Below the pieces are notes generated by a model. The model saw only the letters and a list, made by a program, of their open reading frames with translations. It ran no database searches and had not been told where the DNA came from. Shown one piece after another: positions 24,034 through 31,100 of a stretch of DNA of 64,000 nt; the stretch's first letter is position 1; every line of letters begins with the position of its first letter. Position numbers and translations under genes: made by a program. Where the stretch lies: the sequence record OR896825.1; one strand, given 5' to 3'. The stretch is from Escherichia phage Delraymugoa.

Positions 24034-25008
24034 TTACATCGCTAACAGAGAGTCCAGGTCATCCAGATCAGAAGCGGAGGAAGTACCGCCACCCAGATCC
24101 AGCGATGCCATCAGGTCATCAGCGGAAGAATCTAACGCCGTGCTAGCTGCGTTAATACCAACTACAGTGCTAGCTGCGGTAGTACCAGCATCGAATGCAT
24201 TCATCTGTGCGTCAAAATCGTCAAGCTGGCTGTTAATCGCTGCCGCAGCACTGGAAGCCGCAGCACCAGCTACCATAGACACACCCATAGTTTTCTTAAA
24301 TTTGGTTTCCAGTTCATCGAACGGTTTAAACTGGCTAGGCGCTACAATCTCACCCAGATCAACCATGTTTTCCATCAGATATTTCTGATATGCTTCGTCT
24401 TCAATTTTCGGAAGCTGTGATTGCTGCATGAAACGAGAATCATCATAGTTCTGGTGTTTATCAACCTTCTTAGCTTTCAGGAGGAAGTTAGCACCGGAGA
24501 ACACACAAGTTACATCTACCGGAACTTCGCCCATGTCGGTATTCACGTTCACCATCGCAACAATCTTATCGTAAATTTTCTGACCGAAGCGGAATTTGAA
24601 TACCTTACCTTCATTTTCTGGTGCTTGAGGATCTTTCAGTACCAGAATGTTTGCGTAGTAAGACGCTTTACGCTTAATCAGTTGCCATTCGGTTTTATCG
24701 GTATTGTACAGGTCTTTTTCGTTAATATATTTGCACACAGGGCAAGAATCAAAATCACCGTGGGTGCTGGAGCAGTTTTCCCAATACCATTTGCCATTAA
24801 CTTTGAAGGAATGGTTTACCAGTTTCACAATCGGCAGACCGTCTTCTGTCTTAGACGGCAGGAAGCGAATCAGGGCTTCACCGTTACCTGCTGCATCAGT
24901 CTTAATCTTCCACTCTTTCGGATCTTCTTTGGAGAAACCGTTGCCACCTTTCAGTGCGGCCAGTTGAGCTTGCAGTTTGGAAGAATCTTGGCGTTTAAAC
25001 ATATTCAC
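24034..25008 (-). CDS. 32: single-stranded DNA-binding protein (gp32)
   Basis: [29 protein letters not shown] zinc site, acidic C-terminus; strong match to T4 gp32. Confidence 0.9.
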
Positions 25009-25062
25009 TATTCCTTCTTTTGATTGATTTACTAGACTATTATACAGATTTAAATTTACTTG

Positions 25063-25743
25063 TCAACTATTTGTTTCGGCTTTTAATTGAGATATTTCTT
25101 TACACTCTTTAACTACTTTAACAAATAATGCTCTTGCTTTTGCGGCGTCAATAACAAGTAGTTTCTTGTACGCCTTCATTTTAACACTATAAGTTTGCCA
25201 AATCAAGTCTTTGGCTACCTTGTCGTGTTCGTCGATTATATTTAGAAAGCTATCTAACAACATAAACGACTCAAACGATATAATCCGATTTTGCAGTAGT
25301 TTAAAAATACCGCTTGTTTCGGTTGCGGGATTGTATGTAATTAGATCTTTAAGAGTAACCCCGCGTTTCTCGGAGAAGTATACCAGACTTTTAATGTCAT
25401 CGTCAAATCGTGTTGCTGCATCAGTGATTTTACCGATGTACTCCATGTAAAACCCGTATGCGTCAACATCGGTGATTTCACCTACCCATGCATCGGTATT
25501 AGCTACCAGATTGCTTAGGAATAGGAAGTATAATTCTCTTAGATTGTACTTTTCCGCTAATTTTGCGAAATAATACTTATCTCTGCGTTTATTGAATGCG
25601 GCATCAGACAACCGCATCCTCCAATTGTATTTTACGCAATCATAACGCCCGTTCATGTGAGCTTTCATCATGCAATATAACATATACACAGATTTAGCAT
25701 TAATTCGCATATCTGGATCTGGAGGAAGACGGTTTCTGATCAT
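25063..25743 (-). CDS. 59: helicase loader gp59
   Basis: KSVYMLYCMMKAHMNGRYDCVKYNW and FKLLQNRIISFESFMLLDSFLNIIDEHD match T4 gp59. Confidence 0.85.
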   Translation of the reverse strand: MIRNRLPPDPDMRINAKSVYMLYCMMKAHMNGRYDCVKYNWRMRLSDAAFNKRRDKYYFAKLAEKYNLRELYFLFLSNLVANTDAWVGEITDVDAYGFYMEYIGKITDAATRFDDDIKSLVYFSEKRGVTLKDLITYNPATETSGIFKLLQNRIISFESFMLLDSFLNIIDEHDKVAKDLIWQTYSVKMKAYKKLLVIDAAKARALFVKVVKECKEISQLKAETNS

Positions 25744-25752
25744 ACATACCCC

Positions 25753-26022
25753 TTAAATATCGAGAGTGTTGGTCGGTTCGTCGATCACTCCCTTCCTGAG
25801 CGTTCTATTTACTATACATTCTTGTGTGATCTTGTCAATAATGGACACCGGAATATACTTCTGATAGTGACCATATTCGATAGAGTTTTCCTCTACAAAC
25901 TGCGTTGTCGCTTCAAGATAAGTCAATCCCTCTTCAACAACCAGTTTTTCGATTGCAAGACCGTTTGCTGTTTTATTCGCGGCTTTTACCGCATGTTCAT
26001 TAAGCATTGAACACCCGATCAT
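25753..26022 (-). CDS. 33: late transcription co-activator gp33
   Basis: LTYLEATTQFVEENSI matches T4 gp33 core. Confidence 0.7.
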   Translation of the reverse strand: MIGCSMLNEHAVKAANKTANGLAIEKLVVEEGLTYLEATTQFVEENSIEYGHYQKYIPVSIIDKITQECIVNRTLRKGVIDEPTNTLDI

Positions 26023-26275
26023 AGAGTTCTACCGCTTCGTCGCGTTCTGCTTCGAAGGTTTCGCGCTGTTGCTGGTGATACAGTTTAAACAGAATGCCCC
26101 ACATTTTACCATCTACGCCTAATTCTTCTTTAGCACGCTGTTTGATCTCTTTGATCTTATCGCCATATGCTTCTTGAATGGTTTTCTGATCGCTGGCTTC
26201 TTTAATCAGTTGTGCCAGGGTATTTCCGTGTACATTTTCATCGAATACTACTTTTTCTTTTTTCTGTTCAGTCAT
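26000..26275 (-). CDS. dsbA: dsDNA-binding protein DsbA
   Basis: RAKEELGVDGKM and ELYDRVF match T4 DsbA. Confidence 0.75.
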   Translation of the reverse strand: MTEQKKEKVVFDENVHGNTLAQLIKEASDQKTIQEAYGDKIKEIKQRAKEELGVDGKMWGILFKLYHQQQRETFEAERDEAVELYDRVFNA

Positions 26276-26280
26276 AATAT

Positions 26281-26880
26281 TTAACCCTCTTTCGTCATTA
26301 ATTGAAAACCACGTTCAGCTTTTGAAATTTCGCTAGGACTTAAATCGTCACCAACATATTCTAGCATCATTTCTCGGATAATGTCAAGTGCTTTTTCATC
26401 ACCTGATTTTAACTCGAACTCAAGTTCATAATGAGCAGTGTTTCCCAATCCTTCGCCTACTTTGCCATAATAGAAAGTGTCTTTGCACATTTCCACTATA
26501 CCACAACCCATATCTAGAGTCAATGACTTGCGATATGTCATTACTTGCATTATTGCAGTGATATAGTCGGAGTTTACCCCTAGACTATCAATAAAATGGA
26601 CGAACTCATCCCAATTTGAAAATGTCATTTCCTCGCGGTTGAATAGTCCAGATTCATTATCACCCATTTTGACCATGATCTCTGATTTTCTACAGTCAAG
26701 TCGTGCATAAATTCCTTTTTGACGTAGCGCATGATCTTCGGTATCATAATAAAATTCGTGTTTTAATATGTTATCTCGGTCTAAGAGATTGTACCCGTCA
26801 TACATTGCCACCCACAAATCACAGATGGTTTCGACGCCAATTTGTGAGTGTGCATAGTATTTTAATTCAAGTTCTTTCAT
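26281..26880 (-). CDS. CYTH-domain (triphosphate tunnel metalloenzyme / class IV adenylate cyclase-like) protein
   Basis: N-terminal ExExK (MKELELKY), YYDT, LRQKGIYARLD, C-terminal acidic YELEFELK. Confidence 0.5.
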   Translation of the reverse strand: MKELELKYYAHSQIGVETICDLWVAMYDGYNLLDRDNILKHEFYYDTEDHALRQKGIYARLDCRKSEIMVKMGDNESGLFNREEMTFSNWDEFVHFIDSLGVNSDYITAIMQVMTYRKSLTLDMGCGIVEMCKDTFYYGKVGEGLGNTAHYELEFELKSGDEKALDIIREMMLEYVGDDLSPSEISKAERGFQLMTKEG

Positions 26881-26890
26881 GTGTCAACCC

Positions 26891-27838
26891 TTAGAACTCA
26901 CCAATTTTCTGTAACATTTTAACTAACGCATTTGTTACAAAATAGTTATAAATTTTACCGCGTGGTGCTGGTTTAGATTTTTCCCATGCTAACAAAATTT
27001 CATATTCGATGTTATCAGGAATAAATTCAAAATCAATAAGTTCGCGGTTTTCGTCAAAGCGTCGTGCTTCTTCCTCTGTCATCAAAGACTTTGGATCTTC
27101 GGCATCGAAAATTTGCTCTAACCATTTGGTTGCAATTGGTTTAGCTCGTTCTCCTTCCAGTCGTGAGATAATGAAATCACTACGGCACTTGATAGAAGCT
27201 ACACCGTCTTTTGCGTCACCCTTAACACATTTTACCATAAGGTCTTTGTAAGGGCTACCATATTTGCATTTCTTCCACGCTTTCTGTACTGGCGACCACT
27301 GTTTCACGTTTTTGTATTTGTGCAACTGTGTGTAGTCACCATCGCCTGAGTTGATCAGCACCTGGCGACCTTCGACAGAAAACTTTTTAGTTAACACAGC
27401 GATTATATCATCCGCTTCAACTTTGTCAACCTTAATAACGTGATAAGGCATGTTCTCTTTAAACTCTTCGGTGATCTTATTGATCGCAGCAAAGATCATC
27501 TCCCAATCACGCGGATCTGCGTCTCGTTTTTCCTTACGGTTGCGTTTATAGTAAGGGGCGATATCACGTCGCCAGTAACCTTTACTTGAATCAAAGGCAA
27601 GTACCGTAATTGGGTATTGCTCTTTGAATTTTGTCATATTATAACGCATGGTGTCAAGAATAAGATGACGAATCATGCCTTCATTAATAGGATCTTCCGG
27701 TTTAAAGGTATGCGAGATAGTAGCAATCATAAGCTGCGACATATCAATCAAATGCACACCTTCCGGCAGTTTATCTTCTGGATCATCGAAGAAATCATTA
27801 AGTGTAGCGGTAGTTTTTGTAAACGGGTTATACGTCAT
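26891..27838 (-). CDS. rnh: RNase H / 5'-3' flap exonuclease
   Basis: GYWRRD, KVDKVEADDIIAVL, SGDGDYTQLHKY match T4 RNase H. Confidence 0.85.
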   Translation of the reverse strand: MTYNPFTKTTATLNDFFDDPEDKLPEGVHLIDMSQLMIATISHTFKPEDPINEGMIRHLILDTMRYNMTKFKEQYPITVLAFDSSKGYWRRDIAPYYKRNRKEKRDADPRDWEMIFAAINKITEEFKENMPYHVIKVDKVEADDIIAVLTKKFSVEGRQVLINSGDGDYTQLHKYKNVKQWSPVQKAWKKCKYGSPYKDLMVKCVKGDAKDGVASIKCRSDFIISRLEGERAKPIATKWLEQIFDAEDPKSLMTEEEARRFDENRELIDFEFIPDNIEYEILLAWEKSKPAPRGKIYNYFVTNALVKMLQKIGEF

Positions 27839-27840
27839 AA

Positions 27841-28026
27841 TTAAGTTCTCTCCACTCTCACAACAACATATTCGCCAAACGAGTTAGATACTTCACGATC
27901 ATACCCGTATTTCTCCATAACTCGCAGAATTGCATTGTTTAATTCGGCACGGAAATAATTGTAATCCTTATCAGGGATTCTGTCAACTACCCATTTTGCA
28001 CCTTCTGACAAATCAACTTTAACCAT
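27841..28026 (-). CDS. hypothetical protein (61 aa)
   Basis: ORF. Confidence 0.4.
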   Translation of the reverse strand: MVKVDLSEGAKWVVDRIPDKDYNYFRAELNNAILRVMEKYGYDREVSNSFGEYVVVRVERT

Positions 28027-28064
28027 AATATATCATCCTCTTTTGTTTCTATCAAGCCTTATTT

Positions 28065-28072
28065 TATAAATA
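28065..28072 (+). promoter_or_regulatory. T4-type late promoter TATAAATA upstream of gene 34
   Basis: exact TATAAATA 29 nt before ATG 28101. Confidence 0.65.
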
Positions 28073-28100
28073 TGAACATACTATAAAAGGAGACCCAATA

Positions 28101-31100
28101 ATGGCAGATTTTTCTCAACATTTCAAGGCCACATTTGGCTTTGACGCTGGTAATGAAAAGGTCGTCAATGTAGCATTGGCTGATAAGAATGTCAACACCG
28201 ATGCGGTCAACGTTGAATTTTTCAATTACCATAATGGTATTACTCAGTATGACACAACTCGCGGTTATGATCAATACGGAACTACAATCTATCAAAACCG
28301 TCCGTATTATGCAAAAGAAGATATCACAAAGCCAGCAGGTGATTTTGACCCGACTAAATGGCAAGCACTGCGCACGGACCCACGTTGGGATTATATTGCA
28401 GCAACTTCCGGTGATACTCCTTTAAAGTCTGGTGATTATATCGCAGCAGATGGTCAATTTGCAAACTTGACTTTCTCTATGCCAACTAAACCAGCAGAGG
28501 GAGACACTATAACAGTAAAAGATATCGGTGGCAAGTGTGGTGTTAACGAATTATCGTTCTTGAGTACAGGACATGAGTTTTACCATAACGGTAATGTGTA
28601 TAACAGAAAATGGTATTGCACTACCCCGTATGCAATGAACTATTTCATCTTTGTTCGGAATCGTTGGCATGTTTATCAGACAGGAACAGAGCCACGCGGT
28701 GTGTACGCACAGCCAGCGATTGATGCTATTCAAATGCAGAATGGTGATCAGGTATTTCGTCGTAGTTCGTTGGGTAATATTACCTTAGTGCTTCCTAAGT
28801 TTGCCAACAATGGCGACATGATCCAGACTACAGACCTTGACGGATTAACCGCAACCAACCACGTTACGGTTAAAGTTCATGAGCACGCAGAAGAACAATC
28901 AATTGGCACGTCCGGTCTAAAAGAGATTATCGGTAAGCGTAGCGGTCATGGTGTATTCATCTTTGACAAGACGGAAAACTTATGGCGTTTGTGGGATGGT
29001 GATCAGTCTGTTCGTCTTAAACCGATCATCAATGACACTCGCTTGCAACCTAATAGCTATGTTGCTGTATTTGGTGGTCGTGATGTTACTCTGACGCTGC
29101 CGACCAATGTCGAGCCGGGTGATCGTATTCAAGTTTCTATGCAGTATATGCACGGAAACCAGACTTGCCGAATCATTACCTCAGAAGAGGATACAAAAAT
29201 CCTTATGCAGAAAAACATGGTTCAGTTTCCTAAGCGTAGCGAGTACCCATTCAATGGGACCGATACATGGACTGGAGTGTCTGAATTGTCTTTCAACGCT
29301 GCAAATGATTATGTACCTTATCTGGAGTTCTCTTATTCAGAAGGTGATGATGGTAAGAAATACTGGTTGGTGGCACATGCTCACCCGATTGTAGAACGAG
29401 TAGATCCGACTCGTAAAGATCGTGTTGGTGTAATTGCACTGGCTACCCAGACTGAAACGAATAAAAACCATGAAGAGAATCCTAGCGACGAAGTTGCTGT
29501 AACACCAAAAATGCTGGCTAATAAAACAGCCAACGAAACTCGACGCGGTATTGCTCGCATTGCGACTCAAGCGGAAACGCATCAAGATACTGGTTCCAAC
29601 TTCCTGGATGATGTTATCGTTACACCCAAAAAGTTAAATGACTGTGTTGCTACCGAAGCCCGTCGTGGTGTGATGGAAATTGCAACCCAGCACGAAACCA
29701 ATGAAGGTTTAGACGATACCCGCGCTATTACTCCTAAGAAATTAGAAGAACGTCGCGCTTCCGAAGATCTAGCTGGTATTGCTGAAATTGTTCAGGCTGG
29801 CGGTAGTGCTGCCGCTCGACGTGGCGAAGCTGGTACAGGGATCTATAACATCAACGACCATGCTAAAATTGTTACGCCACAAAACATCAACGAAGTCAAG
29901 GCGACCGAAACTTCCCGTGGTGTTGGCTATCTGGCAACTGACGCGGAAGTGCAAGGGGCTACAGAATCAACCCCGCAAGATGCTTTACTAATCACGACTC
30001 GCACGCTAACGAAACGTACTGCTACCGAATCGCGCACTGGTATCGCTGAAATTGCAACTCAGGAAGAAACAAACTTAGGTCAAAGTGATAACCATATCAT
30101 CACGCCTAAAAAGCTGCATACTCGCCGCGCAACTGAAACTTTACATGGTTTAGCAGAAATTGCAACTCAACCGGAGTTTGACGCAGGTCGTGACGATTCT
30201 CGCATTTCTACCCCATTGAAGATTAAAACCTTCTTTGAGAATGCACAGCGTTTGAAAGTAGATCCGACTCAGGGGCTTAACCTTACTGGTGATTTGTGGC
30301 AAGGTATCATGATCAGCGGTCTGGATGCAACCGAAGACACAAAAGGTGTCGCTAAAGTTGCTACTACTCAGCTTACTGACGCTGGTCAAGATGATACTAC
30401 AATCATCACGCCTAAAAAGCTGCAAGGCAAAAAGGCCACCGAAGGTAAAGAAGGTATTATCCGGGTTGGTACTCAAGCCGAAACCGTTGCTGGTATTATG
30501 GACAATGTAGCAATTTCTCCGAAGAACTTCAAATATGTTGTTCAGACAGAGGATACATGGAAAGCAACCGAAGCGCGTCGTGGATTCTTGAAAGTTGCTA
30601 CTCAGGAAAACTGTTTTGTTGGTGACAATCTGCAAGGTTCTACTCAAGAACTAGGAAACTACCAGCATGACGGAATTGCTGTTACCCCGAAAGGATTAAA
30701 CTACGCACTTGCTAATTTCTTACCTAAGATGGCAACCGCTCAGAATAGTTTGAAATTGGGTAACGTAGAGGCCGCTAAATGGGCGCGTAGAGACATTGAC
30801 CAGACCATAGAGAGCAATTACACGTTTAATAAAAAAGTTAACGTGAAGGGCGATTTAGAGTGCTTAAAATCAGGTTCCTTTGAAACTCTGTCTGTGACTA
30901 AGAACTCGACCGATGTTCCGAGTAATGGTCATCTGGTGTTGGGTGAGCGTGGAGTTGACGGTCACACCGGAATTACTCTGCATGGCACAACCGCATCGGA
31001 AGGCATGAAAAACTCTTGGTCTATTATCGTTGGTGGTACGGGAACAGCGCAAGTTGTTGATAGTGATGCTATCGCTTTCGGTAAAATCAATGATGGTGGA

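Follow-up and report, generated by a model that had tools for sequence, protein, structure and literature searches.

In phage T4 (NC_000866), no gene lies between dsbA and rnh, which are only 8 bp apart, and the locus described here raises the question of what a protein encoded between them in a related phage does. The window, a stretch of 64,000 nucleotides (nt) from Escherichia phage Delraymugoa (OR896825.1), comes from a Krischvirus (RB49-like, Straboviridae) and carries at this place an open reading frame (ORF) of 199 amino acids (aa), which is thus an insertion relative to T4. The original prediction, made from the sequence alone, gave the T4 gene order correctly and read the ORF as a CYTH protein by the motifs ELELK (residues 3 to 7), YYDT (44 to 47), LRQKGIYARLD (52 to 62), and YELEFELK (151 to 158), all of which agree with the translation. 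With a probability of about 0.7, the product is a stand-alone, YgiF-like two-metal triphosphate phosphohydrolase without a CHAD domain and not a cyclase.

Membership in the CYTH family was established by profile and by predicted structure. The protein scored 29.5 bits with Pfam CYTH (PF01928), for which the gathering cut-off is 23.2 (E = 8e-7, model positions 22 to 178 of 179), and its PHROGs family is phrog_14893, which carries no functional assignment. A profile made from 20 phage-family sequences aligned with the entire tunnel domain of Escherichia coli YgiF (PDB 5a60/5a61) at E = 3.6e-12. AlphaFold2 run on the 20-member family alignment gave a model with a mean predicted local distance difference test (pLDDT) score of 93.4 and a predicted template modeling (pTM) score of 0.86, with long beta-strands, taken as an eight-stranded barrel tunnel, and a C-terminal plug helix at residues 187 to 197. 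Among solved structures, YgiF was the best Foldseek match (TM score 0.79), and the matches ranked below it were all triphosphate tunnel metalloenzymes (TTMs) as well. The two checks proposed with the prediction, a hidden Markov model search and a structure prediction, thus both returned the CYTH fold, and together with the intact motifs they identify the 199-aa product, as far as profile and model can tell, as a genuine CYTH/triphosphate tunnel protein. Selection on the ORF is purifying, with a ratio of nonsynonymous to synonymous substitution rates (dN/dS) of 0.15 to 0.34. Two other assignments were dropped, a sub-threshold match to the NCBIfam HAD family (E = 0.14) and a weak single-sequence match in the PDB to the TriTu immunity protein (E = 0.072), taken as chance because the profile search puts YgiF in its place.

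Residue roles were taken from the mutational and structural work on YgiF (Martinez et al. 2015; PMC4641920) and transferred by HMMER alignment. The metal 2 ligands E4, E6, and E162 of YgiF correspond to E3, E5, and E156 of the phage protein, the metal 1 ligand E160, invariant in all TTMs, to E154, the catalytic R56 to R60, and the substrate-binding K69 to K71. All catalytic residues mutated in the YgiF work were invariant in the phage family, and so were K7, Y44, D46, R82, E84, R117, E152, and, in the plug helix, K187 and R190 (invariant or near-invariant), across phage alleles down to 35 to 47% identity and 41 aligned relatives. From this invariance, an active enzyme with the two-metal mechanism of YgiF and AtTTM3 would be expected. 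The basic tunnel residues R60, K71, R82, R117, K158, K187, and R190 are present, and the second Arg of the RxR motif is replaced by D62. Mutation of the equivalent of that second Arg to Ala in AtTTM3 (R54A) had little effect on activity (PMC4641920), so D62 need not abolish catalysis.

The protein would accordingly be pictured as a phage equivalent of YgiF's catalytic domain, the N-terminal one. Its substrate would be held by the seven basic residues listed above and by the metal-1-binding E154, while a second metal bound to E3, E5, and E156 would activate water for an attack on the terminal phosphate, with release of orthophosphate. The default substrate in vitro would be inorganic triphosphate (PPPi) or short polyphosphate, as for YgiF. 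The latter, a CYTH-CHAD inorganic triphosphatase (COG3025), is the closest solved structure to the phage tunnel domain and differs from it by its polyphosphate-binding CHAD domain, to which the linker leads directly after SKAARGY, the counterpart of the phage plug helix. The phage protein ends straight after that helix and thus has no CHAD domain; Pfam gave no CHAD match in its 199 aa and dsbA starts 5 bp downstream.

Hydrolases and cyclases share this fold, and three sequence determinants part class IV adenylate cyclases from TTM/thiamine triphosphatase (ThTPase) hydrolases (Vogt et al. 2021; PMC8233210). The cyclases carry an HF motif four residues ahead of ExExK (HFxxxxExExK), a small residue in place of the first Arg of RxR on strand beta3 (V61 in YpCyaB), and ExA rather than ExE on strand beta8 (PMC8233210). 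All three fail in the phage protein: M1 and K2 alone precede E3, which leaves no room for an HF motif, R60 is invariant, and beta8 reads E154-F-E156. The beta3 register is given by a broader profile in which residues 34 to 62 correspond without gaps to residues 32 to 60 of the human ThTPase chain, and the YpCyaB range agrees. YgiF was likewise found to be without cyclase activity (Kohn et al. 2012). Together with the failed determinants, this makes the name "adenylate cyclase" in the GenBank records of AV108, KMB43, and PHB13 very probably wrong, judged by sequence, and the name "inorganic triphosphatase" in the Makalu phage records appears closer. The same determinants speak against the idea that the protein, as a class IV adenylate (nucleotidyl) cyclase, reprograms the host through cyclic AMP or a different cyclic nucleotide. 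CyaB/YpAC-IV (2fjt, 3n0y) does share the CYTH superfamily fold and ExExK with the phage protein, three records bear the cyclase name, and weak cyclase side-activities are reported for some plant TTMs; even so, such a function is highly improbable. Of the pairing of cyclase and triphosphatase in the original prediction, the triphosphate-cleaving half is thus the more probable and the cyclase half is rejected.

Other enzyme classes of the fold fit less well. Where ThTPases have W/YxRxR, the phage strand reads Y58-A-R60-L-D62, with the aromatic residue and the first Arg kept and the second Arg replaced by Asp; mammalian 25-kDa ThTPase (3bhd, 5a64) is about 15% identical and a poorer structural match than YgiF. 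Neither a match to the mRNA_triPase family of Cet1-like RNA triphosphatases (PF02940) nor a Cet1-type protein among the nearest structures was found. CYTH triphosphatases are scattered over jumbo phages (Iyer et al. 2021; PMC7824862). The other viral proteins of the TTM fold include Aeh1ORF004c, the CYTH proteins of Aeromonas phages 65.2 and D3, and the Cet1-type capping triphosphatases of giant viruses; compared with the phage clade described here, all of these are remote structural matches (TM score 0.3 to 0.55, 10 to 16% identity) of a different subfamily.

The phage clade was found to be isolated and to carry a tunnel signature of its own. An exhaustive profile search of 1.84 billion representatives gave 3136 relatives at E ≤ 1e-3, 372 at E ≤ 1e-10, and only 3 at E ≤ 1e-30, hence the isolation, and the 149 best relatives were aligned to the phage profile. 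At position 62 the phage clade has Asp and the cellular relatives have Arg in 144 of 149 sequences, the second Arg of RxR (R58 of YgiF, R57 of ThTPase). Position 58 is Tyr in the phage clade and aromatic in none of the 149 relatives, and it corresponds to W53 of ThTPase, which stacks on the thiazole ring of thiamine; ThTPase R57 and its neighbor R55 contact the beta and gamma phosphates (PMC8233210). The remaining positions are 40 (Lys in the phage clade, Leu in cellular relatives), 42 (Glu versus Asn or Ser), 80 (Phe versus His), and 115 (Thr versus Phe), and at all six the protein also departs from YgiF. Stand-alone bacterial TTMs of about 200 aa (P0044, P0046, NeuTTM, and CthTTM) likewise consist of a single domain with ExExK, ExE, and the Arg/Lys tunnel residues but differ by L40, N/S42, a small residue at position 58, R62, H80, and F115. 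K40 may form a cross-strand salt bridge that compensates for the lost Arg, or E42 and D62 may build an additional metal site in the modeled tunnel. This coordinated remodeling of one tunnel end makes an altered substrate preference of the phage clade likely, as far as residue identities can indicate.

The signature accompanies the locus over long distances. The set K40, E/D42, and D/N62 was found only in the phage family and in its two nearest outliers, P0045 and P0055; residue 58 is aromatic in 18 of 19 (95%) aligned phage-family sequences and is Val in P0045 and Ile in P0055. On a T4-like contig, dsbA and gene 33 follow directly after the gene for P0045, and a more distant T4-like phage, with flanks of only about 75% identity, has the gene for P0043 (47% identity) placed between its rnh and dsbA. 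Linkage of the CYTH gene with rnh or dsbA persists to about 35% identity. The shared place and the shared signature point to an old, locus-resident phage lineage with its own tunnel signature. The bacterial P0044 (30% identity, R62) adjoins PHO4 and PhoU phosphate-transport genes.

Within the genus, the gene is conserved throughout. A 2.4-kb stretch around it was 100% identical to Escherichia phage GoldenSnicker and 96 to 99.9% identical to 56 other records, and tblastn with the protein returned 57 records with the same breakdown by organism. Every sequenced phage with this backbone (57 of 57 records) thus has the CYTH gene, and at E ≤ 1e-3 tblastn placed the phage family in Krischvirus records only. 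A scan of IMG/VR with the family alignment gave at least two loci, and the same database scanned with P0045 gave no match. The gene is the orthologue of RB49p245 (RB49ORF244c in Nolan et al. 2006), for which the RB49 RefSeq record notes "similar to P45267, P30871, HI1598, ygiF" and the table of Pfam matches for novel ORFs gives a CYTH domain at E = 0.0026 (Nolan et al. 2006). The kvi and Sf20 proteins are named "CYTH domain-containing protein" in UniProt, and one member is labeled "inorganic triphosphatase YgiF" in IMG. The CYTH assignment as such is therefore already known as annotation; the tunnel signature and the divergence island described below appear to be undescribed so far. In Escherichia phage vB_EcoM_G2494 (L014, 601-1196), a frameshift near codon 59 splits the gene into ORFs of 66 and 130 aa, and the 130-aa fragment stands separately in protein databases (P0041, BFVD A0A482GBZ4).

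Codons 1 to 150 diverge strongly among genomes that are otherwise nearly identical. In this part, nucleotide identity to the window was 0.85 for the RB49 and P0012 types and 0.55 to 0.56 for the Skers/P0035 and P0042 types, while the small ORF upstream of rnh, rnh itself, CYTH codons 151 to 199, dsbA, and gene 33 were 92 to 100% identical among Krischvirus genomes. Between the window and Skers, the proportion of synonymous differences (pS) was 0.74, a saturated value, in the N-terminal part and 0.00 to 0.16 in the C-terminal part and the flanks. At least five allele classes were distinguished, with 42 to 63% aa identity between classes in the N-terminal parts and mostly 96 to 100% in the C-terminal parts (86 to 88% for the P0034 allele). 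Among residues 1 to 150, just 31 were invariant, most of them in the tunnel. A special constraint on the near-identical C-terminal 49 residues was considered and rejected: the DNA there shows mere backbone identity, and it is the N-terminal three-quarters that are anomalous. By this comparison of alleles, codons 1 to 150 form an allele cassette exchanged by recombination, the junction of which falls within the gene close to ELEFELKSGD, and old CYTH alleles are kept functional and shuffled among near-identical genomes. The island suggests that, beyond its active site, the protein is under unusual evolutionary dynamics. Diversifying or frequency-dependent selection could have produced it, and neutral import of diverged alleles fits the alignments equally well.

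The analysis shows the family and the fold, the retained catalytic residues, the failing cyclase determinants, and conservation under purifying selection; catalytic activity, substrate, timing of expression, and biological role are inferred. Several points weigh against the hydrolase reading. Closure of the tunnel and the residue contacts in the predicted model follow from strand alternation only. D62 stands where 144 of 149 relatives have Arg, and the protein could be quite unlike YgiF in its activity or specificity. The G2494 frameshift may mean that the gene is dispensable in culture, or it may be a sequencing error in that record. Literature searches returned no characterized member of the phage clade and no enzymology. 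YgiF itself is a specific PPPase in vitro with a Km of about 270 µM, is present at about 20 copies per cell, and contributes a marginal share of cellular PPPase activity, and the authors doubted PPPi hydrolysis as its physiological role (Kohn et al. 2012); simple PPPi scavenging would then bring the phage no obvious benefit.

The physiological substrate may thus be sought elsewhere, and a possible, though less probable, alternative keeps the fold and the two-metal hydrolysis and exchanges PPPi for an organic triphosphate. Candidates are nucleoside or deoxynucleoside triphosphates (NTP/dNTP, as pool sanitizing), thiamine or adenosine-thiamine triphosphate, and RNA with a 5'-triphosphate, from host mRNA or from primase-made primers, the primer variant being suggested by the adjacency to rnh. 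The aromatic Y58 at the W53 position of ThTPase, found in none of the YgiF-like relatives, and the change of charge at one tunnel end through R62 to D, K40, and E42 are consistent with it, as is the persistent linkage to rnh or dsbA. It has further been suggested that phage CYTH proteins and MazG degrade NTPs with unmodified bases (Iyer et al. 2021; PMC7824862). RB49 is without the NudE/NUDIX hydrolases of other T4-like phages, which, speculatively, leaves room for a substitute nucleotide-polyphosphate hydrolase. A role in dCTP exclusion, by analogy to T4 gp56, was disfavored: Krischviruses have no synthase for hydroxymethylcytosine (hmC) or for 5-hydroxy-dCMP, and phage SAP, reported to carry modified cytosines, encodes a CYTH protein 100% identical to that of phage TB34, with unmodified DNA. 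Over the CYTH locus, the window is 99.8 to 99.9% identical to these two Krischviruses. A 2026 paper describes wholly different cytosine modification in SAP and TB34 at 99.96% genome identity, with known modification genes absent and with the SAP profile equal to that of co-isolated Tequatrovirus phages (PMC13390438). Given its identity in both, the CYTH protein cannot cause their difference.

A reading that we consider unlikely takes the phage clade as a re-specialized TTM rather than a PPPi scavenger, with the remodeled end serving an organic triphosphorylated target, which may be a host alarmone or immune signal, thiamine or adenosine-thiamine triphosphate as a starvation signal, or 5'-triphosphate RNA ends, and with host-driven diversifying selection on the surface as the source of the allelic diversity. 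Quite unlikely is a protein with its main role in an arms race, which as an anti-defense factor would break down or sequester a triphosphorylated host immune signal or alarmone, or which host immunity would itself detect; its allelic hypervariability would then mirror diversifying or frequency-dependent selection. It could draw on the island, with its allele classes set in 92 to 100% identical backbones around an invariant active site, and on a dN/dS of 0.34 between the window and RB49 alleles compared to 0.09 to 0.13 in the flanks. Since dN/dS is well below 1 throughout and the allele classes have reached saturation at their synonymous sites, old alleles brought in by recombination, with no special selection, explain the pattern equally well. 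No family of PADLOC-DB was matched at E ≤ 1 by models that cover defense proteins and not phage counter-defense, and searches of the literature for CYTH/TTM proteins in phage defense or counter-defense and for RB49 escape mutants returned nothing relevant. To our knowledge, no TTM is documented to act on a known bacterial immune signal. The proposal that the protein alters second-messenger pools or nucleotide-based defense signaling was left unsupported.

The practical gain lies in marking the "adenylate cyclase" labels as very probably wrong and in a CHAD-less relative of YgiF that appears catalytically intact by its residues and bears a clade-specific signature. We know of no phage CYTH enzyme with an established substrate, and a small, soluble, well-predicted protein kept in every Krischvirus is a convenient entry point to phage CYTH/YgiF biology. 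A preprint on essentiality by HIDEN-SEQ contains no mention of Krischvirus, RB49, or the CYTH gene.

Table 1. Features of the CYTH locus in the window (positions refer to the whole 64,000-nt stretch)
Feature	Coordinates	Strand	Basis or remark
CYTH/TTM gene, 199 aa, ATG start	26281..26880	-	ORF listing and translation
ExExK motif (E3, E5, K7)	26860..26874	-	Aligned to YgiF E4/E6/K8; invariant in alleles and relatives
Strand beta3 (Y58-A-R60-L-D62)	26695..26709	-	R60 = YgiF R56; D62 at second Arg of RxR
Strand beta8 (E152-L-E154-F-E156-L-K158)	26407..26427	-	ExE intact, invariant; aligned to YgiF E160/E162
C-terminal plug helix (S186-K187-A-E-R190-G191...K197)	26290..26325	-	DSSP helix 187-197; aligned to YgiF SKAARGY
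Divergence island, codons 1-150	26431..26880	-	Versus L002, L006, L010-L013
CYTH 3' quarter, codons 151-199	26281..26430	-	Backbone-level conservation; nt identity 0.96-1.00 among Krischvirus alleles
61-aa ORF	27841-28026	-	phrog_3594, no Pfam match; between rnh and divergently oriented gene 34
rnh (RNase H/5'-3' exonuclease), upstream neighbor	26891..27838	-	Pfam RNaseH_C 2.6e-37, 5_3_exonuc_N
dsbA (late-transcription dsDNA-binding protein), downstream neighbor	26000..26275	-	Pfam Phage_DsbA 5.4e-22
Gene 33 (gp33)	25753-26022		Pfam
Gene 59 (gp59)	25063-25743		Pfam
Gene 32 (gp32)	24034-25008		Pfam

The gene lies in a block for replication and late transcription, a setting in which it differs from ygiF, and downstream of it follow dsbA and then genes 33, 59, and 32 (Table 1). 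It has the orientation of rnh, dsbA, 33, and 59 and is separated from rnh by 10 bp and from dsbA by 5 bp. By this layout, co-transcription with the pre-replicative genes for replication and late-transcription accessory proteins is probable. In the RB49 RefSeq record, no promoter is marked immediately ahead of the CYTH gene. A consensus scan of positions 25700 to 28300 on the gene strand gave 21 sigma70-like sites compared to 8.4 ± 2.3 in shuffled sequences, among them sites upstream of the small ORF (e.g., 28195-28167), a perfect TTGACA-16-TATAAT inside rnh (27429-27402, minus strand), and, as a consensus match only, TTGACA-18-TAGAAT with a TG element in the 3' end of the CYTH gene (26387-26358, minus strand), from which dsbA starts about 80 nt further downstream. 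Another site, over the CYTH start codon (26887-26859), was discarded, as it probably arises from the conserved codons for MKELELKY. At 28065-28072 (plus strand), 29 nt ahead of gene 34, which starts at 28101, there is a T4-type late promoter box, TATAAATA; the whole window has only three such boxes, no more than by chance.

Several smaller differences among the genomes were observed in the neighborhood. Each Krischvirus locus examined has the 61-aa ORF, whereas T4 is without a gene at this place and the distant P0043 contig carries an ORF of 85 aa there. A second short divergent patch in the 3' part of rnh (about 26980 to 27066) showed nucleotide identities of 0.64 to 0.75 to Skers, RB49, and P0035 and of 0.96 to 0.99 to the P0042 and P0012 backbones, with the remaining rnh at 95 to 100%; by these identities it is another small mosaic segment. 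The overlap of dsbA and gene 33 measures 23 nt (26000-26022), as in T4 (149509-149531), and is annotated as 8 nt in Skers and P0035, where gene 33 is called shorter, probably a difference in start-site annotation. The gap between genes 59 and 32 (25009-25062) is empty in the window and in the RB49, P0042, and P0012 backbones, holds SegG in T4, and contains an HNH homing endonuclease in Skers (L002 4802-5398) and in the P0035 genome (L012 4805-5401). From the sequences compared, this gap, which lies about 1.3 kb from the CYTH gene, is polymorphic for the insertion of mobile elements. The genomes with the HNH gene are also those with the Skers-type CYTH allele.
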